Sequence record: OL960580
Source of the DNA: Escherichia phage vB_EcoM_SA21RB
Length of the DNA stretch: 64,000 bases
Strand: one strand, 5' to 3'
The notes under the pieces are model-generated. The model worked only from the letters and a program-made list of their open reading frames with translations, made no database searches and had not been told where the DNA came from. This document shows, piece by piece, positions 1 to 29,700 of the stretch. The position numbers and the translations under genes were made by a program. Within the stretch, counting starts at the first letter, position 1. The number at the start of each line of letters is the position of its first letter.

Positions 1-566
<566 letters not shown>

Positions 567-594
567 TATTAAAGCATATTAAAGAGGATTAAAA

Positions 595-2574
595 ATGACT
601 TTATTATCTCCGGGCATTGAGCTCAAAGAAACTACGGTTCAAAGCACCGTGGTTAATAACTCTACTGGTACAGCAGCTTTGGCCGGTAAATTCCAGTGGG
701 GTCCTGCTTTTCAGATTAAACAGGTTACAAATGAAGTAGATTTAGTTAATACTTTTGGTCAACCAACCGCTGAAACTGCTGACTATTTTATGTCTGCGAT
801 GAATTTCTTGCAGTACGGAAATGACTTACGAGTAGTTCGTGCTGTTGATAGAGATACCGCTAAAAACTCATCGCCAATTGCTGGTAATATTGAATACACA
901 ATTTCTACCCCAGGTAGTAACTACGCGGTTGGAGATAAAATCACGGTCAAATATGTTTCAGATGATATTGAAACTGAAGGTAAAATTACTGAAGTAGACG
1001 CAGATGGAAAAATTAAGAAAATTAATATTCCTACTGCAAAAATTATCGCTAAAGCGAAAGAAGTAGGCGAATATCCAACACTAGGTTCTAACTGGACTGC
1101 GGAAATTTCTTCATCTTCCTCTGGTTTAGCTGCAGTAATAACTCTTGGAAAAATTATTACTGATTCTGGTATTTTATTAGCTGAAATTGAAAATGCTGAA
1201 GCTGCTATAACAGCTGTTGATTTTCAGGAAAATCTTAAAAAATATGGAATTCCAGGAGTAGTAGCTCTTTATCCAGGCGAATTAGGCGATAAAATCGAAA
1301 TCGAAATCGTATCTAAAGCTGACTATGCAAAAGGAGCTTCTGCATTACTCCCAATTTATCCGGGCGGTGGTACTCGTGCATCTACTGCTAAAGCAGTGTT
1401 TGGATATGGACCACAAACTGATTCACAGTACGCTATTATAGTTCGTCGCAATGATGCTATTGTTCAAAGCGTTGTTCTTTCAACGAAGCGTGGTGAAAAA
1501 GATATTTACGATAGTAACATCTATATTGATGACTTTTTCGCAAAAGGTGGTTCAGAATATATTTTCGCAACTGCACAAAACTGGCCAGAAGGCTTCTCTG
1601 GAATTTTAACTCTGTCTGGTGGATTATCGTCAAATGCTGAAGTAACAGCAGGAGATTTGATGGAAGCTTGGGACTTCTTTGCTGACCGCGAATCTGTTGA
1701 TGTTCAGTTGTTTATTGCGGGTTCTTGCGCCGGCGAATCTTTAGAAACAGCATCTACTGTCCAAAAACACGTCGTTTCAATTGGTGATGCTCGCCAAGAC
1801 TGCTTAGTATTATGCTCACCACCGCGCGAAACTGTAGTTGGAATTCCTGTAACTCGTGCTGTTGATAACTTAGTCAATTGGAGAACTGCAACAGGTTCAT
1901 ACACTGATAATAACTTTAATATCAGTTCAACCTATGCGGCAATTGATGGTAACTATAAGTATCAGTATGACAAATATAATGATGTGAATCGTTGGGTTCC
2001 ATTAGCAGCTGATATTGCTGGTTTATGCGCAAGAACTGATAACGTTTCTCATACTTGGATGTCTCCAGCTGGTTATAATCGTGGCCAAATTTTGAACGTT
2101 ATTAAACTGGCTATTGAAACTCGCCAAGCTCAGCGCGACCGTTTATACCAAGAAGCTATTAACCCGGTAACTGGCACAGGTGGCGATGGTTACGTATTGT
2201 ATGGTGATAAAACAGCTACTTCTGTTCCTTCTCCGTTTGATCGTATTAACGTTCGTCGTCTGTTTAATATGTTGAAAACGAATATCGGACGTAGTTCAAA
2301 ATATCGTTTGTTCGAATTAAACAACGCGTTTACTCGTTCATCATTCCGCACAGAAACTGCCCAGTACTTACAGGGAATTAAAGCTCTCGGTGGAATTTAT
2401 GAATATCGTGTAGTTTGCGATACAACAAATAACACTCCGTCAGTAATTGATAGAAATGAGTTTGTTGCAACATTCTACATCCAACCGGCTAGAAGCATTA
2501 ACTACATTACCTTGAACTTCGTAGCAACTGCTACTGGTGCAGATTTCGATGAGTTAACTGGTCTTGCAGGTTAA
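595..2574 (+). CDS. 18: Tail sheath protein gp18
   Basis: 659-aa ORF, N-terminus MTLLSPGIELKETTVQ recognised as T4 gp18; SD AGAGGA upstream; length equals T4 gp18. Confidence 0.95.
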   Translation: MTLLSPGIELKETTVQSTVVNNSTGTAALAGKFQWGPAFQIKQVTNEVDLVNTFGQPTAETADYFMSAMNFLQYGNDLRVVRAVDRDTAKNSSPIAGNIEYTISTPGSNYAVGDKITVKYVSDDIETEGKITEVDADGKIKKINIPTAKIIAKAKEVGEYPTLGSNWTAEISSSSSGLAAVITLGKIITDSGILLAEIENAEAAITAVDFQENLKKYGIPGVVALYPGELGDKIEIEIVSKADYAKGASALLPIYPGGGTRASTAKAVFGYGPQTDSQYAIIVRRNDAIVQSVVLSTKRGEKDIYDSNIYIDDFFAKGGSEYIFATAQNWPEGFSGILTLSGGLSSNAEVTAGDLMEAWDFFADRESVDVQLFIAGSCAGESLETASTVQKHVVSIGDARQDCLVLCSPPRETVVGIPVTRAVDNLVNWRTATGSYTDNNFNISSTYAAIDGNYKYQYDKYNDVNRWVPLAADIAGLCARTDNVSHTWMSPAGYNRGQILNVIKLAIETRQAQRDRLYQEAINPVTGTGGDGYVLYGDKTATSVPSPFDRINVRRLFNMLKTNIGRSSKYRLFELNNAFTRSSFRTETAQYLQGIKALGGIYEYRVVCDTTNNTPSVIDRNEFVATFYIQPARSINYITLNFVATATGADFDELTGLAG

Positions 2575-2590
2575 TACGGTGCATTCTAAA

Positions 2591-2608
2591 GGCCTGTTTC
2601 GGCAGGCC
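2591..2608. terminator. Intergenic stem-loop GGCCUG-loop-CAGGCC after gene 18
   Basis: 6-bp GC stem seen directly; no strong U-run so may be a stability or processing hairpin rather than a terminator. Confidence 0.4.
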
Positions 2609-2609
2609 A

Positions 2610-2617
2610 TATAAATA
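2610..2617 (+). promoter_or_regulatory. Late promoter box TATAAATA (distal, gene 19)
   Basis: Exact TATAAATA in the 18-19 intergenic region. Confidence 0.45.
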
Positions 2618-2668
2618 CACTATATCCTTAATTCTTTAATTCTATATGCCCTAGGTTAAACATAGGGA

Positions 2669-2676
2669 TATAAATA
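2669..2676 (+). promoter_or_regulatory. Late promoter box TATAAATA (proximal, gene 19)
   Basis: Exact TATAAATA 15 nt upstream of the gene 19 ATG. Confidence 0.55.
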
Positions 2677-2690
2677 CTACAGAGGCTAAT

Positions 2691-3182
2691 ATGTTTGTAG
2701 ATGATGTAACACGAGCGTTTGAATCTGGTGATTTTGCTCGACCTAACTTGTTCCAAGTAGAAATTTCTTATCTTGGACAAAATTTTACGTTTCAATGTAA
2801 AGCCACTGCTTTACCAGCTGGTATTGTAGAAAAAATTCCAGTCGGATTTATGAACCGTAAAATTAACGTAGCAGGCGATCGTACATTCGATGACTGGACT
2901 ATTACAGTAATGAATGATGAGGCGCATGATGCACGCCAGAAGTTTGTTGACTGGCAAAGCATTGCTGCTGGGCAAGGAAACGAAATTACCGGTGGAAAAC
3001 CAGCAGAGTATAAAAAGAGCGCTATTGTACGCCAATATGCTCGTGACGCTAAAACTGTAACAAAAGAAGTCGAAATTAAAGGCCTGTGGCCTACTAACGT
3101 GGGTGAACTTCAATTAGATTGGGATTCAAACAATGAAATCCAAACCTTTGAAGTAACTCTCGCTCTCGATTATTGGGAATAA
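2691..3182 (+). CDS. 19: Tail tube protein gp19
   Basis: 163-aa ORF, same length as T4 gp19; follows gene 18. Confidence 0.93.
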   Translation: MFVDDVTRAFESGDFARPNLFQVEISYLGQNFTFQCKATALPAGIVEKIPVGFMNRKINVAGDRTFDDWTITVMNDEAHDARQKFVDWQSIAAGQGNEITGGKPAEYKKSAIVRQYARDAKTVTKEVEIKGLWPTNVGELQLDWDSNNEIQTFEVTLALDYWE

Positions 3183-3189
3183 AATGAAT

Positions 3190-3203
3190 GGGGAGAAATC
3201 CCC
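3190..3203 (+). terminator. Small stem-loop GGGGA-GAAA-UCCCC after gene 19
   Basis: 5-bp stem with GAAA tetraloop, seen directly. Confidence 0.35.
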
Positions 3204-3214
3204 ATCCTGCTTAA

Positions 3215-4839
<1,625 letters not shown>

Positions 4840-4840
<1 letters not shown>

Positions 4841-5088
4841 TGGAAGGTTTAATTGAAGCTATTAAATCAAACGACCTCGTAGCCGCTCGTAAATTATTTG
4901 CTGAAGCCATGGCTGCAAGAACGATTGATTTAATTAAAGAAGAAAAAATCGCTATCGCTCGTAATTTCTTAATCGAAGGTGAAGAACCTGAAGATGAGGA
5001 TGATGACGAAGACGAAGATGGTGATGATAAAGACGACAAAAAAGACAAAGACTCTGACGAAGATGACGAAGACGAGGATGATGAATAA
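4840..5088 (+). CDS. 67: Prohead core protein gp67 with acidic D/E-rich C-terminal tail
   Basis: 82-aa ORF overlapping the gene 20 stop (TAATG); acidic tail typical of T4 gp67. Confidence 0.88.
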
Positions 5089-5513
5089 TGCTTCTGATCC
5101 CTGAAACTCATGAATTAGTTCTCGAGAATGTCGAAGCACTTATTCCTGAAGCACAGGGTCGCTTTGACGAATTGTCTTCTGCTTTAAATAAAGACGATAT
5201 AAATACAATTGTCGAGAATATGCTTGATGATGAAACTGATTTAGCAGTTGCATTAGCTTCTATTAATGAAAACATGCCGTTAAATGAATTCATTGTTAAG
5301 CACGTTTCAGCTCGTGGTGAAATTACACGTACTAAAGATCGCAAAACACGCGAACGTAATGCATTTCAAACCACTGGGCTGTCTAAAGCAAAACGTAGAC
5401 AAATTGCTCGTAAAGCTACCAAAACGAAGATTGCCAATCCAGCAGGTCAATCTCGTGCTCAGCGTAAGCGTAAAAAAGCTCTTAAACGCCGTAAAGCATT
5501 AGGATTAAGCTAA
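5088..5513 (+). CDS. 68: Prohead core protein gp68
   Basis: 141-aa ORF, start overlaps gene 67 stop; position and length as T4 gp68. Confidence 0.88.
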
Positions 5514-6151
5514 TGAATGAACCCCAATTACTAATTGAAACTTGGGGTCAACCTGGCGAAATTATTGATGGTGTGCCAATGCTTGAATCCCACGATGGAA
5601 AAGACCTAGGTTTAAAACCGGGTTTATACATCGAAGGAATATTCATGCAAGCAGAAGTCGTCAATAGAAATAAACGTCTTTATCCAAAACGCATATTAGA
5701 AAAAGCGGTAAAAGACTATATCAATGAGCAAGTTTTAACTAAACAAGCTCTCGGAGAATTAAATCATCCTCCACGCGCTAATGTTGACCCGATGCAAGCC
5801 GCTATCATTATAGAAGATATGTGGTGGAAAGGAAATGACGTATACGGACGAGCTCGTGTTATTGAAGGTGACCACGGTCCTGGAGATAAATTAGCAGCTA
5901 ATATTCGTGCCGGATGGATTCCAGGAGTTTCTTCTCGTGGATTAGGTTCATTGACTGACACAAATAAAGGTTATCGTATCGTAAACGAAGGATTCAAATT
6001 AACTGTAGGTGTTGATGCAGTATGGGGTCCAAGTGCTCCAGATGCATGGGTAACTCCTAAGGAAATTACCGAATCACAGACGGCGGAAGCCGATACAAGT
6101 GCCGATGACGCCTATATGGCTCTCGCAGAGGCCATGAAAAAAGCGTTATAA
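5513..6151 (+). CDS. 21: Prohead core scaffold protease gp21
   Basis: 212-aa ORF, same length and position as T4 gp21. Confidence 0.92.
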   Translation: MNEPQLLIETWGQPGEIIDGVPMLESHDGKDLGLKPGLYIEGIFMQAEVVNRNKRLYPKRILEKAVKDYINEQVLTKQALGELNHPPRANVDPMQAAIIIEDMWWKGNDVYGRARVIEGDHGPGDKLAANIRAGWIPGVSSRGLGSLTDTNKGYRIVNEGFKLTVGVDAVWGPSAPDAWVTPKEITESQTAEADTSADDAYMALAEAMKKAL

Positions 6152-6153
6152 AT
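6146..6153 (+). promoter_or_regulatory. Late promoter box TATAAATA upstream of gene 22
   Basis: Exact motif 29 nt upstream of the gene 22 ATG. Confidence 0.55.
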
Positions 6154-6181
6154 ATTATTATCTAAACAACAGGACTACAAA

Positions 6182-6991
6182 ATGCTTAAAGAACAACTGA
6201 TTGCCGAAGCGCAGAAAATTGATGCTTCCGTTGCTCTTGATAGTATTTTCGAATCAGTTAATATTTCTCCGGAAGCAAAAGAAACTTTCGGCACTGTATT
6301 CGAAGCTACCGTCAAGCAGCACGCCGTTAAATTAGCTGAATCTCATATCGCTAAAATTGCTGAAAAAGCAGAAGAAGAAGTAGAAAAAAATAAAGAAGAA
6401 GCCGAAGAAAAAGCTGAGAAGAAAATCGCTGAGCAAGCTTCTAAATTCATCGACCATCTTGCGAAAGAATGGCTCGCTGAAAATAAATTAGCAGTTGATA
6501 AAGGCATCAAAGCCGAACTGTTTGAATCCATGCTTGGTGGATTAAAAGAGCTCTTTGTTGAACACAACGTTGTTGTTCCAGAAGAATCAGTTGATGTTGT
6601 AGCTGAAATGGAAGAAGAGCTGCAAGAACATAAAGAAGAATCAGCTCGTCTGTTCGAAGAACTCAATAAGCGTGACGCATATATCAATTATGTGCAGCGT
6701 GAAGTGGCATTGAGCGAAAGTACTAAAGATCTGACTGAGTCTCAAAAAGAAAAAGTCTCTGCTCTGGTCGAAGGTATGGATTATTCAGATGAATTCTCAA
6801 GTAAATTGAGTGCCATCGTAGAAATGGTGAAGAAGTCTAATAAAGATGAAAGCACTATTACTGAGGGTATAAATACTCCTGATACTGAAGCAGCCGGACT
6901 GAATTTCGTCACTGAAGCTGTAGAAGATAAAACTGCACCTGGTGCAGAAGATATTGTAAGTGTATATGCGAAAGTCGCATCTCGTTTCTAA
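6182..6991 (+). CDS. 22: Prohead core scaffold protein gp22
   Basis: 269-aa ORF, acidic coiled-coil-like composition, length as T4 gp22. Confidence 0.92.
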   Translation: MLKEQLIAEAQKIDASVALDSIFESVNISPEAKETFGTVFEATVKQHAVKLAESHIAKIAEKAEEEVEKNKEEAEEKAEKKIAEQASKFIDHLAKEWLAENKLAVDKGIKAELFESMLGGLKELFVEHNVVVPEESVDVVAEMEEELQEHKEESARLFEELNKRDAYINYVQREVALSESTKDLTESQKEKVSALVEGMDYSDEFSSKLSAIVEMVKKSNKDESTITEGINTPDTEAAGLNFVTEAVEDKTAPGAEDIVSVYAKVASRF

Positions 6992-7009
6992 TTTTAAAGG
7001 TTAACACAA

Positions 7010-8575
7010 ATGACTATCAAAACTAAAGCTGAACTTTTGAACAAATGGAAGCCATTACTGGAAGGTGAAGGTTTACCGGAAATTGCTAATAGCAAACAAG
7101 CGATTATCGCTAAAATCTTTGAAAACCAGGAAAAAGATTTCCAGACAGCTCCGGAATATAAAGACGAAAAAATTGCTCAGGCATTTGGTTCTTTCTTAAC
7201 AGAAGCTGAAATCGGTGGTGACCACGGTTACAATGCTACTAACATCGCTGCAGGTCAGACTTCTGGCGCAGTAACTCAGATTGGCCCGGCTGTTATGGGT
7301 ATGGTACGTCGTGCTATTCCTAACCTGATTGCTTTCGATATTTGCGGTGTTCAGCCGATGAGCAGCCCAACCGGTCAGGTATTCGCACTGCGCGCAGTAT
7401 ATGGTAAAGACCCAATCGCTGCCGATGCTAAAGAAGCATTCCACCCAATGTATGGTCCAGATGCAATGTTCTCTGGTCAGGGTGCTGCTAAGAAATTCCC
7501 AGCTCTGGCTGCTAGCACACAAACCGTTGTAGGTGATATCTATACTCACTTCTTCCAGGAAACTGGTACTGTGTATCTGCAAGCTTCCGCTGTAGTAACA
7601 ATCGATGCTAGTGCTACTGATGCAGCTAAATTAGATGCTGAAATTAAGAAACAAATGGAAGCTGGTGCACTGGTAGAAATCGCTGAAGGTATGGCTACTT
7701 CTATCGCTGAACTCCAGGAAGGTTTCAACGGTTCTACCGATAACCCATGGAATGAAATGGGCTTCCGTATCGATAAACAAGTTATCGAAGCTAAATCTCG
7801 TCAGCTGAAAGCTGCTTACTCTATCGAATTAGCACAAGACCTCCGCGCTGTTCACGGTATGGATGCTGATGCTGAACTGTCTGGTATTCTGGCTACCGAA
7901 ATCATGCTGGAAATCAACCGCGAAGTTGTTGATTGGATTAACTACTCAGCTCAGGTTGGTAAATCTGGTATGACCCTGACTCCGGGTTCTAAAGCTGGTG
8001 TATTTGACTTCCAGGATCCGATTGATATTCGTGGTGCTCGCTGGGCGGGTGAATCCTTTAAAGCTCTGTTGTTCCAGATTGACAAAGAAGCAGTTGAAAT
8101 TGCTCGTCAGACCGGTCGTGGTGAAGGTAACTTCATTATCGCTTCCCGTAACGTAGTTAACGTACTGGCTTCAGTTGATACTGGTATTTCTTATGCTGCA
8201 CAGGGTCTGGCTACCGGCTTTAACACTGATACTACCAAGTCAGTATTTGCTGGTGTTCTGGGTGGTAAATACCGTGTATATATCGATCAGTATGCTAAAC
8301 AGGATTATTTCACTGTAGGTTATAAAGGTCCGAACGAAATGGATGCTGGTATTTACTATGCTCCATATGTAGCTCTGACTCCGCTGCGTGGTTCCGATCC
8401 GAAGAACTTCCAACCAGTAATGGGATTCAAAACTCGTTACGGTATCGGTATCAACCCATTTGCAGAATCCGCTGCTCAGGCTCCGGCTTCTCGCATCCAG
8501 AGCGGTATGCCTTCTATTCTGAATAGCCTTGGTAAAAACGCTTACTTCCGCCGTGTATATGTTAAAGGTATCTAA
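7010..8575 (+). CDS. 23: Major capsid protein gp23
   Basis: 521-aa ORF, same length as T4 gp23; strong codon bias consistent with a highly expressed gene. Confidence 0.96.
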   Translation: MTIKTKAELLNKWKPLLEGEGLPEIANSKQAIIAKIFENQEKDFQTAPEYKDEKIAQAFGSFLTEAEIGGDHGYNATNIAAGQTSGAVTQIGPAVMGMVRRAIPNLIAFDICGVQPMSSPTGQVFALRAVYGKDPIAADAKEAFHPMYGPDAMFSGQGAAKKFPALAASTQTVVGDIYTHFFQETGTVYLQASAVVTIDASATDAAKLDAEIKKQMEAGALVEIAEGMATSIAELQEGFNGSTDNPWNEMGFRIDKQVIEAKSRQLKAAYSIELAQDLRAVHGMDADAELSGILATEIMLEINREVVDWINYSAQVGKSGMTLTPGSKAGVFDFQDPIDIRGARWAGESFKALLFQIDKEAVEIARQTGRGEGNFIIASRNVVNVLASVDTGISYAAQGLATGFNTDTTKSVFAGVLGGKYRVYIDQYAKQDYFTVGYKGPNEMDAGIYYAPYVALTPLRGSDPKNFQPVMGFKTRYGIGINPFAESAAQAPASRIQSGMPSILNSLGKNAYFRRVYVKGI

Positions 8576-23465: not shown

Positions 23466-23469
23466 CAAT

Positions 23470-23495
23470 GGGGACCTTTCGGTCCCCATATTTTT
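23470..23495. terminator. Bidirectional terminator between gene 54 (+) and the minus-strand alt region
   Basis: GGGGACC-UUUC-GGUCCCC hairpin followed by a U-rich tract. Confidence 0.75.
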
Positions 23496-23784
23496 ATTTA
23501 CGGAATGAAATGAAAGCAGAAACTGAAGCAACTAAACTGTCTTCAATATAAACTTCAATTTTTACCGGAGCTTCTGACTCGAATTTACCTGTTACTACAC
23601 CTTGGAAAATACTTTCAGTTTGTTCTGGCTTTGAAAAATTTTCAGAAGGAAAAATTCCGAACTTTTTATCTGTTCCAAAAATTTTGATAAATTCATCATA
23701 AACTGCTTCATTAAAAGCATTATCAGCAGGAATAACGCCTTCAACTACAAGTTCTTGACCTAAAAAGCGCAAAGAAGATTTCAT
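23494..23784 (-). CDS. Hypothetical protein (T4 alt.-x position)
   Basis: 96-aa ATG ORF with SD AAGGA, downstream of an early promoter. Confidence 0.7.
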   Translation of the reverse strand: MKSSLRFLGQELVVEGVIPADNAFNEAVYDEFIKIFGTDKKFGIFPSENFSKPEQTESIFQGVVTGKFESEAPVKIEVYIEDSLVASVSAFISFRK

Positions 23785-23796
23785 TTTGTGTTCCTT

Positions 23797-23845
23797 ATGT
23801 TATATCAGTAAGATTACTATAACACAACACGAGGGACTTGTAAAC
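23797..23845. repeat. 49-bp promoter-leader repeat, copy A (48/49 identical to 39071-39119)
   Basis: Direct comparison of the two sequences. Confidence 0.9.
23816..23845 (-). promoter_or_regulatory. T4-type early promoter (GTTTAC -35, 18-nt spacer, TATAGT -10)
   Basis: Reverse complement of the plus-strand sequence; sits upstream of the 96-aa ORF. Confidence 0.65.
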
Positions 23846-25902
23846 TACATTTTGAACTTTTTAGACATTCCGTTAATGTTAACCAAAGAAGCTAAGATTT
23901 GAGAAACTTCGTTTTCCTCTTCTTTTGATTCTTCTACAAGGAATTGATTAAATCCAGCCATTGGACGAACTTCACCAGTTTCCATTAAATGGTCGCCATC
24001 ATATACTGATTCTTCTAATTGTTCAGAAGGAGGAACGATTGTACCTTCGATTAGATACTTATTATAAGCAGTTTCTTTCATAAAGTACGTACTTACTTTA
24101 TTAATCTTCAGTAAAATTCCACGCGGTAGAATAACTTCAGCTTCTGATGGAAATCCTGATAAATGACCTGGAACGATAACTTTGATTCGCTCAGCTCCTT
24201 TAATTACCATACCCACGCTAGTTTCAGCATCTTCATTAGCATATGTAGAATGACTACCCATATGCATCAAATCTTCTGCATCAACGGAACCTTCTCCTTC
24301 ACCAGAAAATACTGCGCCGGAATCATCTAGAGCCATATAGTTTTTACCATGCTCACCGAAGATATTTGGTTTAAGCGATGTGGATACGAAGTTCTTGAAA
24401 TAGAACATTTTATTTTCAATGTTATGACGCAAAGTTTTAAAGGTAACTTCTTGCCCACGATAAAGAGTAGTTCCTGGAGGAAGAACTGAACCTTTAGCAA
24501 ATGCAGAATCCAACGTCTCGATGTGTTTAATAGCTCGTTCCATATATTCTTCACGAGTAGAATCTGGTTTACCCAAGAGGAACGAGTTCATTTCAACATA
24601 TGAATCTGCACAATAATCTTCAATTACATCAGACTCAGCCTGAGTCAGTCCTTTTGGAGTTACTTCGGTGCTTGCGTATTCATATGCCTGAGCAGCAGAT
24701 TCATTAATCAATTTATAAATGCCATTCATGACAAATTGAATAATAGCTGTCTTTTCATCTGACGTAGCTTTAGAACCTTTAACTAAATCATTGATAATTT
24801 TCTTAATAACATCAAAGCTATTAGAAATATTAATATCAGCAAGATCGCTTAAAATTTTATCAGTTTTATAATCAAAGAATTCTTTATTCTTTAAATATTC
24901 TTGAGAACCTTGATATGTTATATCGCTCTGCAACTTGATGGATGGATCACGTAAACGTGCATGGGCTAATGCAATATGATTTCGGAAGTTTTCTAGTTCA
25001 TAATCGCTAGATTTAAAACGAGAAGCACTTCTCATACCACCGATAGCTCCTTTGCTGAAGTTTGAACCAATCTGAATAACGCCAGAGTTCATTGGTCCTT
25101 CTGCTTTATATACCGGAACTTTAGATTCAAACTCTTGATATTTCTTGGCAGCGAAGCTATCACCCTGAAGCGAAGCATCTACAGTAGAATATTGAGCTTG
25201 CGCTGCTAATCGACGACTAATTTTAGTTTTCTGAATAACAGCTTGATCCGTGCGCTTATCATTTTCTAAAGCAATAGAAGCAGCAACAGCAACAGCTTTA
25301 GGAACAGCATTACCTGTTTTAACATCTACATAAACATCACCAACCTTTGATTCAACTTTTGTGAATAACTCAGTTGAAATAGGAGGTACACCTGGAATGT
25401 CTTCTAAATTGGCATTTTTACGGTAAACCATAATATATGCATACTTTTTATCATAATCCCAGATTTCCTTTAAAAGAACATATCGACCTGCTCCTTTAGT
25501 ACGTACTAAACGGTCAGCAATAACTTGCATTTGACGAGCTGCGCCATTTGTTTTACTTTTTAGTACGCGGAATAGGCATGCGTCAATTTTATACTGTTTC
25601 ATTGTTTGAAGAGCAGTATCAAAAACCGCATTAATAACACCAATTGGATTTCCACCCAAGTTTTTAAGTTTAACTAATGATAGTTTCTCATTAACACCTA
25701 TCATTACGATATGCATCATTTTATCGCCTGGCTTAACGTTTTTATTTGTATCACCGCCAGAGGTGTATGTACAAAATCTAAATCCAGGAAGCACGCTTTC
25801 TTCGCCGGCTTGAATAGCAAAAATTTGAGGTATTTTATGCTTAGGATTTAAGTTAACAACCGGCGCCGAAGCGCCGTCAAATAATTCTGTAATAAGTTCC
25901 AT
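23845..25902 (-). CDS. Alt-like ADP-ribosyltransferase paralog (685 aa)
   Basis: N-terminus MELITELFD shared with the neighbouring paralog; ART motifs YRGQ, STS and EAEVILPRG. Confidence 0.85.
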   Translation of the reverse strand: MELITELFDGASAPVVNLNPKHKIPQIFAIQAGEESVLPGFRFCTYTSGGDTNKNVKPGDKMMHIVMIGVNEKLSLVKLKNLGGNPIGVINAVFDTALQTMKQYKIDACLFRVLKSKTNGAARQMQVIADRLVRTKGAGRYVLLKEIWDYDKKYAYIMVYRKNANLEDIPGVPPISTELFTKVESKVGDVYVDVKTGNAVPKAVAVAASIALENDKRTDQAVIQKTKISRRLAAQAQYSTVDASLQGDSFAAKKYQEFESKVPVYKAEGPMNSGVIQIGSNFSKGAIGGMRSASRFKSSDYELENFRNHIALAHARLRDPSIKLQSDITYQGSQEYLKNKEFFDYKTDKILSDLADINISNSFDVIKKIINDLVKGSKATSDEKTAIIQFVMNGIYKLINESAAQAYEYASTEVTPKGLTQAESDVIEDYCADSYVEMNSFLLGKPDSTREEYMERAIKHIETLDSAFAKGSVLPPGTTLYRGQEVTFKTLRHNIENKMFYFKNFVSTSLKPNIFGEHGKNYMALDDSGAVFSGEGEGSVDAEDLMHMGSHSTYANEDAETSVGMVIKGAERIKVIVPGHLSGFPSEAEVILPRGILLKINKVSTYFMKETAYNKYLIEGTIVPPSEQLEESVYDGDHLMETGEVRPMAGFNQFLVEESKEEENEVSQILASLVNINGMSKKFKM

Positions 25903-25905
25903 GAT

Positions 25906-28002
25906 TTATCCTTGAACGAACTTGTAAGGCATGTTTGTAATATCTATGCAAGACGCAATAATTCCAAGAGATGATTCTACTTTTTGTTTAACATTTGATG
26001 AAACAAATGATGCAAAGTCAACTCTGTCTTCTATTTCAATATCACCTGTCATTGCAACTACTTCACCAGTTTCCATTAGACGGTCACCGTCATAAATTAC
26101 TGATTCGGTGAGTTCTTCCGTAGTCATAACTTCAGCTTGAATGAGTTTTGTATTATTAGATGTTGTTCCGTCATTATTAGAAGCATCAGTTATTTTATTA
26201 ACTTTGACCATCAATCCGCGTGGTAGAATAACTTCAGCTTCTGTTGCTATTCCGAGACTTCCTGGATATACAACATTAACTTTATGTGCGCCGTCAATTG
26301 CCCATCCTATTTGAACTTTAACGTATTCAGGATTTTCTTTATACGCTCTTATTTCGTTTGGATTAATAGTTATTCCTTCTTCATTTTTATCAACTGTCAA
26401 TTCATTACGAGCTTCTGGTTCTAAAAGACCAATACCAGCATGTGTAATTCCAAAACGTCCAAAAATGATAGGAGTTAAAGAAGTAGATACAAAATTTCTG
26501 AAATAGAACACTTTATTTTTAACTAGTGCTTCGTATATAGGAGCAGTCATACTTTGTGCACGATAAACTGTAATGCCTTCCGGTATACGGTCACCATTTT
26601 CAAAAGCTGAATCTAAGTTATTTATAGCAGATTCAATTTCTTTTTCACTCATTACATCATATCGTTCTGGATTGTAGCGTCCTAAAAGAAGATTATTGAT
26701 GTCAGTATATCCTGAACCACAATACTCTCTAATGCCGCGCTTTTGTGATGGAGTATATTTAGAACCATCACGGGCAATAGTAATATCAATCATTGGACCT
26801 GCACCAATTCCAGAAAAGCTATAAATCATTCGTTTGAGGAATTTAGTTTTTGCTGCGTTCCAGGAATTTTTAGTTATTTCTTCCCAGACTTCATCTGGCT
26901 GTCCTTTACGGGTTTTATTATGTTTATCAAGCCAAGTATCTTTATATTCTTCAAAGAATTTATTAATAGCTGCTGCATACTTCTCTAAACATTTTATTGA
27001 AGTAGTTGGTTCATTTTTGATCGCGTTAAAAATTACATCTTTAATTTTTTCAGAAACTTCATTAACCTCACTTTTTGAAAAGAATTTATAATCATAGTGA
27101 AGTTCATCTGCAGTTCCTTCAGCAATAATTTTTGCTGCCTTAGTTTTAGAAGCCAATGAATTAATTCCAAGTTTCATTTCTTCTGCTTCAGGAATTAAAG
27201 GAGCGGTAGCAGGTTTATTGAAATTAGCTGCGGTAGATTCATACTTCTGGAATAATTCACTTTCAAATCTAGAAGATTCCAATGACTGACTTTGTGCAAT
27301 TGCTCTACGGGAAATTTTAACTTTAACGATTACAGCTTGGTCAGAACGTTTATCATTTTCTTGCGCAATAGATGCAGCAATTGCCTCATTTTTAGTTACT
27401 TGAGCTCCAGTATCTTTATTGATATAAACATCACCGACCTTCGATTCAACTTTAGTAAAGAGCTCGGTGCTAATTTCCGGAATTCCTGGAATGTCTTCTA
27501 GTGATACATTTTTGCGATGTATAAGAATATATGCATACTTTTTATCGTAATCCCAGAGTTCCTTAAGAAGGACGTATCTGCCACCCGAACGACTACGGAT
27601 AAGTCTATCAGCAATAACTTGAATTTGTCGAGCTTGACCAGCAGTTTTAGACTTAAGAATACGGAGCATACAGGCATCAATTTTATACTGACGCATCGTC
27701 TGCATTGCAACAGTAAAAACTGAATTGATGTAATTAATTGGGCTTGGACCGAGACCTTTCAATTTAGCAATTGAACCTTTAGCAGTTAATGTAAAAGGAA
27801 CAATATGCATCATTTTATCGCCCATTTTTAAATCGCGATTAGTATCACCTCCAGATGTATAGGTACATAAACGAAAGCCTGGTTGTTCAATTGCGTCATC
27901 AACATGAACTGAAAAAATTTGCGGTATTTTCTTCTTTGGATTTAAGTTTGTAATCGGAAGAGTAGTATCTTCGTCAAATAATTCTGTAATAAGTTCCATC
28001 AT
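25906..28002 (-). CDS. alt: Alt ADP-ribosyltransferase (698 aa), packaged capsid effector
   Basis: R-S-E ART motifs (VYRAQ, FVSTSL, EAEVILPRG); adjacent to the gene 30 side as T4 alt. Confidence 0.85.
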   Translation of the reverse strand: MMELITELFDEDTTLPITNLNPKKKIPQIFSVHVDDAIEQPGFRLCTYTSGGDTNRDLKMGDKMMHIVPFTLTAKGSIAKLKGLGPSPINYINSVFTVAMQTMRQYKIDACMLRILKSKTAGQARQIQVIADRLIRSRSGGRYVLLKELWDYDKKYAYILIHRKNVSLEDIPGIPEISTELFTKVESKVGDVYINKDTGAQVTKNEAIAASIAQENDKRSDQAVIVKVKISRRAIAQSQSLESSRFESELFQKYESTAANFNKPATAPLIPEAEEMKLGINSLASKTKAAKIIAEGTADELHYDYKFFSKSEVNEVSEKIKDVIFNAIKNEPTTSIKCLEKYAAAINKFFEEYKDTWLDKHNKTRKGQPDEVWEEITKNSWNAAKTKFLKRMIYSFSGIGAGPMIDITIARDGSKYTPSQKRGIREYCGSGYTDINNLLLGRYNPERYDVMSEKEIESAINNLDSAFENGDRIPEGITVYRAQSMTAPIYEALVKNKVFYFRNFVSTSLTPIIFGRFGITHAGIGLLEPEARNELTVDKNEEGITINPNEIRAYKENPEYVKVQIGWAIDGAHKVNVVYPGSLGIATEAEVILPRGLMVKVNKITDASNNDGTTSNNTKLIQAEVMTTEELTESVIYDGDRLMETGEVVAMTGDIEIEDRVDFASFVSSNVKQKVESSLGIIASCIDITNMPYKFVQG

Positions 28003-28022
28003 AGCCTCTCTAGTGTTTATTC

Positions 28023-28036: not shown

Positions 28037-28054
28037 AAGGCCCGAAGGCCTTTA
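28037..28054 (-). terminator. Stem-loop AAAGGCC-CGAA-GGCCUUU between the 62-aa ORF and alt
   Basis: 7-bp stem with 4-nt loop, AT-rich flank. Confidence 0.55.
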
Positions 28055-28240
28055 GTAATCTAGTGGTAAGAGAGTACGATATATTTCAAACTTTGGTCCT
28101 TTTTCATAGGCATCAAATGTTTCTGTAAATTTATTATAAGCATATGCATCTACAAATTCGAGAATGACTTGTGATACAGAAGTAGAAACATCTCCACCTT
28201 CTTTTTGAGCAATGACAATTGTTTCTAAGTAAGCTTTCAT
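28052..28240 (-). CDS. Hypothetical protein, 62 aa, between gene 30 and alt
   Basis: ATG ORF with ATGA overlap onto the gene 30 stop. Confidence 0.6.
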   Translation of the reverse strand: MKAYLETIVIAQKEGGDVSTSVSQVILEFVDAYAYNKFTETFDAYEKGPKFEIYRTLLPLDY

Positions 28241-29700
28241 AGACCAGTTACCTCATGAAAATCACCAAATACATCCTCGAATGTATTAGCTTTAGTTTTA
28301 TCTTCGCGTAAACGAATCGCAATCGGAAGAAATAATTTAACGTAATCAGTGCGGCCATCAGATTTTAACCAACCATTGCATTCGCACTCTAGAATTTTTC
28401 CAATATAATAATTTTGGTTTTCCATAATGCGAGTACGGTCAAGTTCATGTGATTTTACACCGGCTTTATCTTTTAAGCCTGAACCAGCATTTACTTTAAT
28501 TTTTCCACATTCTGATTCAAGAATAAATCCACCGGCTTTAGTAGGGTCTTTACGGTGAGGATAAATTCCTACAATTTTTAAATCAACATCAATTACTTCT
28601 TTAAATTTATAGAGATTTTTTGAACGAGCATTTTCCCACAATCCATCGGTATTTTTGAGAATAATACCTTCAAGACCTTGGTCAATATATTTTTTATAAA
28701 TTACCTTAGCTTCATCTAGGTTATTTACTACCTGGTTTTCAATTAAAATTACTTTATCATATCCTGATGTCATTTGTTCTAGTTTAGAAAAACGTACATC
28801 ATATTTTAAACGAAACGCCGGAAGACCGTATATTTCTACCAACGGGACATAATCCCAGACCTGAAACTTCATACATTGAGCTTCTTTTTCAGAAATGGTT
28901 CCTTTTAAGGATTTATTGGCGATTCCATTAGAAGTAGTACGAGATTCCGCTACTTCGGCGAATTCTTTAGCTTTACTAATTTCAGGATAAGCATCAAAAA
29001 GAAAATCTAGGCCTTCTGGTTCCTTTTTAACTTGCTCATGGTATACCAATTCGCCATCAATTAACACACCTTCTGGATGAATCTGGCGGGCTTCAGCAGT
29101 CATTTTGATTAACTCTTCCTTAAGAAGATCTAATCCTAGATATTCATTACCAGCTCGTGATAAAAGACGAACATCATCTAATTCATCGCCTCGGACTTCA
29201 GCAAAACACCGAGCTCCATCTGCTTTTAACTGCGCAAAGGCTGGAAACTTGATATTCTTACTAATGCCTTTTTCATCATAAGAACTTGCCAGCATTTGAG
29301 GTTGTTCAGGAATTAAACCTGGCCAAACTTTATTTGCAATAGATACTGAAGCACCGCATTCAAGGTCTCGCATCATAACTCGACGCAAAACTTCAACATC
29401 ATCCTTTTTACCATCGGTGATATATCCAATTAATTCCTCAATTGCCGCATTTCCAGTCAATTTCCGAGTAGCTAACGTGAATTCAATGAAGTCAAGCATA
29501 TCGGTAATAGTCAGCATTCCAAAACTCTGGGTAGCAATACCAGGTTTAGGCCATTTCTTGATATAATACTGTAACCCACGAGAATAAGTTAGACGATATA
29601 CTCGTTTAAGCAATTCATTATCTTTATTCTTTTCAAGAATTGCTTGCTTCTGCTTAGTTGATCCAATAGATGCTATTTCATTCAGAATTTTAAGAATCAT
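28237..29700 (-). CDS. 30: ATP-dependent DNA ligase gp30
   Basis: 487-aa ORF with ligase adenylation motif KADGAR; length of T4 gp30. Confidence 0.93.
   Translation of the reverse strand: MILKILNEIASIGSTKQKQAILEKNKDNELLKRVYRLTYSRGLQYYIKKWPKPGIATQSFGMLTITDMLDFIEFTLATRKLTGNAAIEELIGYITDGKKDDVEVLRRVMMRDLECGASVSIANKVWPGLIPEQPQMLASSYDEKGISKNIKFPAFAQLKADGARCFAEVRGDELDDVRLLSRAGNEYLGLDLLKEELIKMTAEARQIHPEGVLIDGELVYHEQVKKEPEGLDFLFDAYPEISKAKEFAEVAESRTTSNGIANKSLKGTISEKEAQCMKFQVWDYVPLVEIYGLPAFRLKYDVRFSKLEQMTSGYDKVILIENQVVNNLDEAKVIYKKYIDQGLEGIILKNTDGLWENARSKNLYKFKEVIDVDLKIVGIYPHRKDPTKAGGFILESECGKIKVNAGSGLKDKAGVKSHELDRTRIMENQNYYIGKILECECNGWLKSDGRTDYVKLFLPIAIRLREDKTKANTFEDVFGDFHEVTGL

Follow-up and report, generated by a model that had tools for sequence, protein, structure and literature searches.

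Escherichia phage vB_EcoM_SA21RB carries two adjacent genes for Alt-type ADP-ribosyltransferases (ARTs) on the minus strand of a 64,000-nucleotide stretch of sequence record OL960580, hereafter the window; we refer to them as copy 1 (alt) and copy 2 (the full-length form of alt.-2). Both are likely functional late genes, arranged in tandem and co-transcribed, whose products would be arginine-directed mono-ADP-ribosyltransferases that are packaged, injected, and probably directed at different host targets. Activity, packaging, processing, injection, divergence of targets and the timing of copy 2 expression are what we infer in this reading, and the sequence comparisons, structural model and genome surveys that bear on them are given below. 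The best-known member of the family, T4 Alt, is an NAD+–arginine ADP-ribosyltransferase that is packaged in the phage head and injected.

The gene pair itself is already known and is ordinary for this phage group: RefSeq annotates it, RB32 alt.-2 has been in GenBank since 2006, and a 2026 paper described a pair of Alt-like paralogs, 43% identical, in a Tequatrovirus, proposing functional divergence and a wider target range (PMC13600099). As far as we found, the origin of the T4 remnant of copy 2, the presence of both sites for the prohead protease gp21 in copy 2, the frequency of the T4 deletion and the modular pattern of the locus appear not to be in print, and these are refinements of a known system. 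About four-fifths of the sequenced T4 relatives that have the locus hold an intact second Alt-type enzyme of which T4 has only a remnant, and what is known of injected proteins in T-even phages is probably incomplete, since nearly all of it was learned from T4.

Two paralogs with a shared N-terminal region and diverged catalytic domains

An earlier reading of the window, made from its sequence alone (the sequence-only reading), had described two adjacent minus-strand open reading frames (ORFs) of 698 and 685 residues sharing their N-terminal regions, and both features hold, with copy 1 more likely to be 697 residues long. The two proteins aligned end to end with 41% identity (BLASTP, expectation value (E) 3e-158), spread very unevenly over the regions, whose boundaries are given in copy-2 residue numbering: 68% identity in the N-terminal region (residues 1–237), 15–21% in the central region (residues 238–415), 35–38% in the ART domain (residues 416–625) and 42–46% in the C-terminal tail (residues 626–685). 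Between the STS and E-x-E motifs the two copies differ wholly in both length and sequence. The sequence-only reading had also called the central parts of the proteins largely unrelated; this applies to the centre itself, which is very diverged, but not to the catalytic domains, which are clearly homologous. Both proteins exceeded the curated gathering cut-off (23.4 bits) of Pfam family PF03496 (ADPrib_exo_Tox), copy 1 with 129.1 bits (E 1.7e-37) and copy 2 with 72.0 bits (E 5.4e-20), and PHROG 802 (Alt-like) spanned residues 1–697 of copy 1 and residues 1–685 of copy 2.

The arginine, STS and E-x-E triad that had been recognized in both copies is present in each, as VYRAQ (R480), STS 505–507 and EAE 587–589 in copy 1 and as LYRGQ (R482), STS 507–509 and EAE 587–589 in copy 2, and the pairwise alignment that the earlier reading had proposed retained the catalytic glutamate in both proteins. 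Among 71 family representatives clustered at 50% identity, R482, S507, E587 and E589 (copy-2 numbering) were invariant and S509 was found in all but one (70/71); R482, S507 and E587/E589 were likewise invariant in alignments of 11 and 9 sequences that held both copies. In the Alt/VIP2 clade, an active-site loop of E-x-E and not Q-x-E form predicts that arginine is the residue modified, and from this motif both copies are predicted to be arginine-specific.

We modelled copy 2 with AlphaFold2 from 71 homologs (mean predicted local distance difference test (pLDDT) score of 84.2, predicted template modelling score (pTM) of 0.79), with low confidence in the loop at residues 518–529 and around the predicted C-terminal cleavage site. 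Foldseek searches of the Protein Data Bank (PDB) matched the ART fold of this model to Vis, C3bot, CDTa and VIP2 (E 8e-7 to 1e-4) and to Certhrax, the best match having E 8e-7 and a template modelling (TM) score of 0.65 normalised to the target. A sequence search of the PDB with copy 2 returned no match at E ≤ 1, leaving no Alt structure to draw on. The PF03496 and PHROG 802 matches, the invariant triad and the C3/Vis/VIP2-like fold of the copy-2 model support the proposal that both genes encode Alt-type R-S-E ADP-ribosyltransferases, paralogs that have an N-terminal module in common and whose catalytic parts have diversified. Precomputed Pfam annotations additionally list PF26846.1 on all full-length Alt homologs, and this entry was reported for neither window protein by the Pfam library used here; it is probably a newer Alt-specific family, perhaps of the N-terminal region, that this library lacks.

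Copy 2 aligned to T4-type Alts with 41–42% identity at 100% coverage (35–39% to T4 Alt in the ART domain) and is under strong purifying selection, differing from its RB32 counterpart by 46 synonymous and only 4 non-synonymous substitutions (dN/dS of 0.022 overall, 0.014 in the N-terminal region and 0.017 in the ART domain). These values bear on the idea that copy 2 has no catalytic activity and serves as a structural or scaffolding protein of the prohead core, or else is a gene in decay. Its loss in T4-type phages shows that it is dispensable, but the invariant catalytic residues, the low dN/dS of the ART domain itself, an ORF that is intact in about 400 records and a confidently predicted ART fold make either form of this idea very improbable.

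Predicted processing, packaging and expression

In T4 the prohead core contains about 40 copies of Alt, which is processed by gp21, remains in the DNA-filled head and enters the host by ejection (PMC9026906). Mass spectrometry showed that processing at ITE-6 and LTE-619 removes six and 63 residues, respectively, yielding a mature protein of 68.2 kDa (PMC5694885), and the mass that we computed for this product from its sequence was also 68.2 kDa. Both window proteins have putative gp21 sites, recognized by motif, at the two ends, ITE-6 and LTE-632 in copy 1 and ITE-6 and LEE-631 in copy 2; the C-terminal motif takes the form L-x-E just before S-(V/I)-YDGD. At the N-terminal site E6 was present in 69 of the 71 representatives and leucine or isoleucine at position 4 in 64, and at the C-terminal site E631 was present in 61 and leucine, isoleucine or valine at position 629 in 66, with an aliphatic residue thus lying two positions ahead of each cleavage glutamate.

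A conserved C-terminal tail had been singled out in the sequence-only reading, and its YDGDxLMETGEV motif is indeed common to both copies, but it begins 2–3 residues past the C-terminal cleavage site. Because of this position, the tail would be an acidic propeptide (predicted isoelectric point 4.2–4.6, with 4.6 for copy 2) that is removed and so lies outside the mature enzyme. Processing at both sites would convert precursors of 78 kDa (copy 1) and 76 kDa (copy 2) into neutral to basic mature proteins of 70.2 kDa and 69.1 kDa, respectively, as computed from the sequences. The two gp21 motifs in each protein strengthen the idea, raised in the sequence-only reading, that both copies may be co-injected.

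We propose that each protein consists of a 6-residue propeptide followed by an N-terminal domain of about 230 residues, a helical linker, a C3/VIP2-like catalytic domain and an acidic C-terminal propeptide. Both precursors would be made late and enter the prohead core, as T4 Alt does, and gp21 would trim them after ITE-6 and after L-x-E-631/632. The trimmed proteins would stay inside the DNA-filled head and leave it together with the DNA on ejection, and the injected enzymes could then ADP-ribosylate host proteins ahead of any phage gene expression. The N-terminal domain of copy 2 is proposed to be the module for prohead-core targeting and retention.

This N-terminal domain had no confident fold match in the PDB. 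Against predicted viral structures (BFVD), the copy-2 model first matched Alt homologs and next, in other myoviruses, the N-terminal portions of large uncharacterised proteins (E 1e-8 to 1e-5, TM score about 0.5), among them a protein with a zeta-toxin domain, as well as a deaminase-domain protein at E 3e-3. Metagenomic proteins P0201, P0217 and P0226 also matched the Alt N-terminal region and lack an ART Pfam domain. These matches hint that the N-terminal module might be a general carrier of other payloads, and we treat them as leads only. Individual BFVD entries with an Alt-like N-terminal fold and no ART include A0A2L0UZ96 and A0A6J5KPZ7_1, and two such entries are annotated as zeta-toxin or cytidine-deaminase proteins.

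Ahead of the first copy, the late-promoter box and Shine-Dalgarno (SD) sequence named in the sequence-only reading were both found, the box as an exact copy of TATAAATA between a terminator-like hairpin and the start of copy 1 (Table 1) and the SD sequence as GAGG at 28008–28005. The promoter function of TATAAATA is read from the T4 late-promoter consensus. At the start of copy 1, two in-frame ATGs directly follow each other (27997–28002), the first of which would give a protein beginning MMELITE and the second one beginning MELITE. The second ATG (27999) lies 5 nt from GAGG and is the start annotated in T4 and RB32; because of this spacing and these annotated starts, the shorter protein of 697 residues is more likely. 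The two genes are closely coupled for translation: the copy-2 start lies 3 nt past the copy-1 stop, with its own SD sequence (AAGGA, 25913–25909) 6 nt 5' of the ATG, and the TATAAATA box upstream of copy 1 probably drives both ART genes as a single late transcript, co-transcription being an assumption here. Upstream, the alt.1 stop codon overlaps the hairpin that precedes the alt late promoter, and this hairpin separates the early ligase/alt.1 unit from the late alt unit; a conserved terminator upstream of alt has been described previously (Nolan 2006).

A second exact TATAAATA lies within the copy-1 coding region (26626–26619, minus strand), some 720 nt upstream of where copy 2 starts; it could serve copy 2 as an internal late promoter or have arisen by chance, the 64-kb window holding 18 matches to this motif versus 8.8 expected. 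A separate transcript from this site would suit an alternative in which copy 2 is never packaged, being made late or from the internal promoter to act in the infected cell in the manner of ModA/ModB, as would the outcome of our literature searches, which returned no virion proteomics for copy 2. We nevertheless consider this alternative improbable: copy 2 retains the full Alt N-terminal domain, where purifying selection is strong, together with both gp21 motifs; no similarity to either ModA or ModB was detected; and an enzyme made late but left unpackaged would have little time to act.

The genes around the Alt pair are those of the alt region of a T4-like genome of the RB32 type (Tequatrovirus), and their positions are collected with the other features in Table 1. 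Immediately before alt.-3 lies a promoter-like site (23844–23816, minus strand) of sigma-70 or early type, made up of TTTACA-17-TATAGT and an extended TG; beside the same gene, at 23468–23489, lies a bidirectional terminator. In T4, mutations that lengthen the C-terminus of Alt.-3 lead to escape from CmdTAC defence (PMC11618068). We found no tRNA genes and no Rfam families at the gathering threshold in the whole 64-kb window.

Table 1. Positions in the window of the two Alt-type genes, their predicted domains, neighbouring genes and signals
Feature	Position	Strand	Remarks
alt.-3	23494-23784	minus	96 aa; Pfam DUF5498, E 5e-64; next gene downstream of copy 2
Copy 2 (full-length alt.-2)	23845-25902	minus	685 aa
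Copy 2, predicted acidic C-terminal propeptide	23848-24009	minus	aa 632-685, directly after LEE-631; holds YDGDHLMETGEV; by homology with T4 Alt LTE-619
Copy 2, ART domain	24028-24657	minus	aa 416-625; PF03496
Copy 2, catalytic codon E589	24138-24136	minus
Copy 2, catalytic codon E587	24144-24142	minus
Copy 2, catalytic codon S507	24384-24382	minus
Copy 2, catalytic codon R482	24459-24457	minus
Copy 2, central helical region	24658-25191	minus	aa 238-415
Copy 2, N-terminal domain	25192-25902	minus	aa 1-237, including 6-aa propeptide MELITE; pLDDT 84
Downstream 9-bp direct repeat CTAAAAAGT	23864-23856	minus	right breakpoint of the T4 deletion
Upstream 9-bp direct repeat CTAAAAAGT	25563-25555	minus	left breakpoint of the T4 deletion
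Copy 1 (alt)	25906-27999 (ORF to 28002)	minus	697 aa from second ATG; 698 aa from first
Copy 1, ART (catalytic) module	26125-26760	minus	Dhakavirus type
T4-type late promoter box TATAAATA	28030-28023	minus	exact match; between terminator hairpin and SD/ATG of copy 1
Terminator-like hairpin after alt.1	28054-28035	minus	from scan: 8 pairs, then T-run
alt.1	28052-28240	minus	62 aa; Pfam PF24647 'Phage_blade', E 1.9e-29
DNA ligase gp30	28237-29700	minus
Neighbouring genes gp29, gp48, gp54		plus

Module exchange, tandem arrays and the T4 remnant

By position, copy 1 is the ortholog of T4 alt, with which it is collinear, yet the two proteins are only 70% identical (BLASTP), and copy 1 is a mosaic: identity is about 99% for residues 1–245 and about 94% for the C-terminal tail, compared to 31–33% for the central region and 65% for the ART domain. 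Against the position-1 Alt of Dhakavirus IME341, the ART module of copy 1 showed 95–96% amino acid and 85–95% nucleotide identity, whereas the N-terminal domain showed only 46–47% amino acid identity (41–60% nucleotide identity for its coding region). With an ART module that is 96% identical to that of a Dhakavirus and 65% identical to that of T4 Alt, we conclude that the catalytic cassette was recently exchanged between Tequatrovirus and Dhakavirus, and this exchange explains the low identity to T4 Alt in this domain.

Tandem Alt genes occur in other genera as well. Dhakavirus IME341 has two full-length Alt genes with the same synteny as in the window, Dhakavirus 04086 has three tandem Alt-like genes (positions 1–6407 of its locus), and Aeromonas phage 31 has two full-length Alt genes and a 319-residue form without the N-terminal domain (2616–7484 of its locus), so that Alt copy number at the locus ranges from one to three across Straboviridae; such Alt paralogs were noted earlier by Nolan et al. 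(2006). Paralogs in the same genome shared 68% (window), 66% (IME341) and 56% (Aeromonas phage 31) identity in the N-terminal domain and 36–37% in the ART domain, while N-terminal domains compared across genera shared 32–47% identity over all pairs. Copy 2 and the Dhakavirus position-2 gene were 43–45% identical in the N-terminal domain, 45% in the central region, 57–59% in the ART domain and 68% in the tail. We conclude from these identities that the two catalytic lineages are old and have been retained side by side, and that the N-terminal module follows the genome and not the cassette. The N-terminal pattern could possibly stem from old concerted evolution, from co-evolution of each module with the core proteins of its own phage, or from repeated duplication followed by cassette capture. 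The two N-terminal regions of the window are unlikely to have undergone recent gene conversion, as they share only 60–71% nucleotide identity with no near-identical tract; lacking such a tract, any homogenisation would be old, or else co-evolution or independent duplications would explain the pattern.

The sequence-only reading had left open whether the second copy matches a named T4 gene, and comparison of the two loci gives an answer. T4 alt.-1 translates to the N-terminus of copy 2, MELITELFDGASAPVV...GGDTNK, and then runs into a frameshift, a 1-nt deletion within an A-run. T4 retains the first 356 nt of copy 2 (343 of them identical) and its last 80 nt (76 identical), and these two pieces are joined at a single CTAAAAAGT, which in the window occurs as two copies 1,699 bp apart. 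With one repeat at the T4 junction where the window has two, T4 must have lost the gene by deletion between short direct repeats, and T4 alt.-1 and alt.-2 together are the remnant of copy 2, left by a 1,699-bp deletion between the 9-bp repeats and the 1-nt frameshift; in RB32 the intact gene bears the name alt.-2. According to the T4 annotation, alt.-1 and alt.-2 reflect an old event in which the first part of alt was duplicated, and PHROGs 23015 and 15247 give a better match to copy 2 than to copy 1.

We surveyed the spread of this deletion with a 120-nt probe across the T4 junction, which was contiguous in 91 of 497 matching records (T4 and 90 others); among the matches listed for the remaining 400 or so, most cover only one half of the probe. 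The central and catalytic region of copy 2 was present at 95% identity or more in about 400 phage records, and the intact pair is thus the common state and the T4 deletion the minority. A 4.9-kb query over both genes matched 544 phage records, 343 of which cover at least 80% of it, mostly at 95–99% identity. Many of the matching records annotate "Alt-like RNA polymerase ADP-ribosyltransferase (x2)", and the RB32 record calls the two genes alt and alt.-2, remarking of the second "apparent insertion in alt.-2; similar to alt". Shigella phage SP21535 (PQ615101.1) has an alt catalytic allele of the RB32 type, 98.7% to copy 1, alongside the T4-type copy-2 deletion junction, a combination indicating that the deletion allele and the alt alleles reassort by recombination.

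RNA polymerase alpha (Arg265) and MazF are targets known for T4 Alt only. Copy 1 probably has the RNA polymerase alpha/MazF-type function of Alt, and the two copies would most likely act on different host targets, because their catalytic modules are so far diverged and more than one genus has retained the pair. Several points weigh against a pair of injected enzymes with separate specificities. E-x-E is found in both copies, whose targets could overlap; copy 2 has been lost from T4 and the 90 other records and is therefore dispensable at least on some hosts; TATAAATA was not found directly upstream of copy 2; and our literature searches for virion proteomics or biochemistry of copy 2 returned only genome-annotation remarks. 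The first two of these points are close to what would be expected if copy 2 shared its targets with Alt (RNA polymerase alpha Arg265 and others), its role being simply to raise the injected dose or to lend robustness. Such redundancy would fit the arginine-type E-x-E and overall architecture common to both copies, the loss of copy 2 from T4 without obvious defect on laboratory hosts, and the fact that Alt is itself non-essential (PMC9026906). It is harder to reconcile with ART domains that are only 35–38% identical and an entirely different stretch from STS to E-x-E, and each catalytic module is nearer its positional counterpart in another genus (58% for copy 2, 96% for copy 1) than its neighbour, which argues for long-term upkeep of two distinct specificities. 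We consequently regard redundancy as unlikely and prefer two enzymes with different targets.

A broader reading, which we put forward tentatively as possible but less than even in likelihood, is that the alt locus is a polymorphic array of one to three injected effectors, in which old, distinct ART cassettes that recombination moves between genera are combined with a genome-specific N-terminal packaging module, its likeness among tandem paralogs maintained through concerted evolution or through co-evolution with the prohead core of the same phage. Copy 2 would then be a differently targeted first-strike effector with a possible anti-defence role like that of T4 Alt against MazF, and in other myoviruses the N-terminal fold may also carry non-ART payloads of zeta-toxin-like or deaminase-like type. 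If this were true, five decades of work on T4, which lost copy 2, would have missed a second effector. The modular pattern, with an N-terminal module that tracks the genome and a cassette swapped between genera, would make the locus a natural system for the study of injected-effector diversification.

Comparison with known systems

The R-S-E ARTs of the Alt/VIP2 clade have been described previously (PMC5512222, PMC9503650). Of the toxins in this group, the C3-like, VIP2 and iota-family enzymes (Vis, C3bot, CDTa, Certhrax) share the catalytic fold and the R/STS/ExE site with the window proteins. They differ in being only 14–20% identical to them, in having neither the N-terminal domain of Alt nor its helical linker or propeptides, and in their delivery by secretion or a binary toxin pore, which is unrelated to phage injection.

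ModA and ModB are R-S-E ARTs of T4 that belong to the Alt/VIP2 clade according to Iyer et al. (PMC5512222), but they are early proteins of about 200 residues that are encoded at another locus and are not packaged, whereas copy 2 is a multi-domain protein of 685 residues. We rejected copy 2 as a Mod-like gene, given that BLASTP comparisons to ModA and ModB gave E values of 0.52 and 2.2 with no meaningful alignment. The polymorphic effectors fused to MuF resemble the Alt pair in joining a conserved head-associated N-terminal module to an exchangeable C-terminal effector (PMC9503650). Neither Pfam nor fold searches found a MuF (SPP1 gp7/Mu F) domain, and the Alt N-terminal domain is another module.

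T4 Alt (gpAlt, NP_049811; 6455–8503, minus strand, of the compared T4 locus) is the closest characterized system. Copy 1 shares its synteny (ligase, alt.1, alt, ..., alt.-3, gp54), its R/STS/ExE residues and its ITE-6 and LTE sites, and copy 2 has the whole architecture; copy 1 differs in its central region and in its ART domain, the latter being closer to that of a Dhakavirus Alt than to that of T4. Replacement of an E-x-E glutamate by alanine, reported as E577A, abolishes T4 Alt activity (PMC11404850), and the E-x-E glutamates of the RefSeq protein are E574 and E576 by our count, a discrepancy that is probably a numbering offset in the construct used. T4 Alt modifies RNA polymerase and inactivates the MazF toxin, according to Alawneh (2016) as cited in PMC10286901, and a second enzyme of other specificity would therefore be a reasonable candidate for a role in host takeover or anti-defence. 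If copy 2 is injected and has targets of its own, it would be a candidate for a new activity of this kind.

T4 alt.-1 and alt.-2 (NP_049810, NP_049809) are homologous to the first 118 or so codons of copy 2 at 96% nucleotide identity, and they differ in that the T4 gene is broken while copy 2 is intact in the window. RB32 alt.-2 (YP_803136) and the pairs annotated "x2" in several hundred Tequatrovirus genomes are the same pair as the one described here, with 97–98% nucleotide identity over the 4.9-kb region and no material difference, and the window is another instance of this pair.

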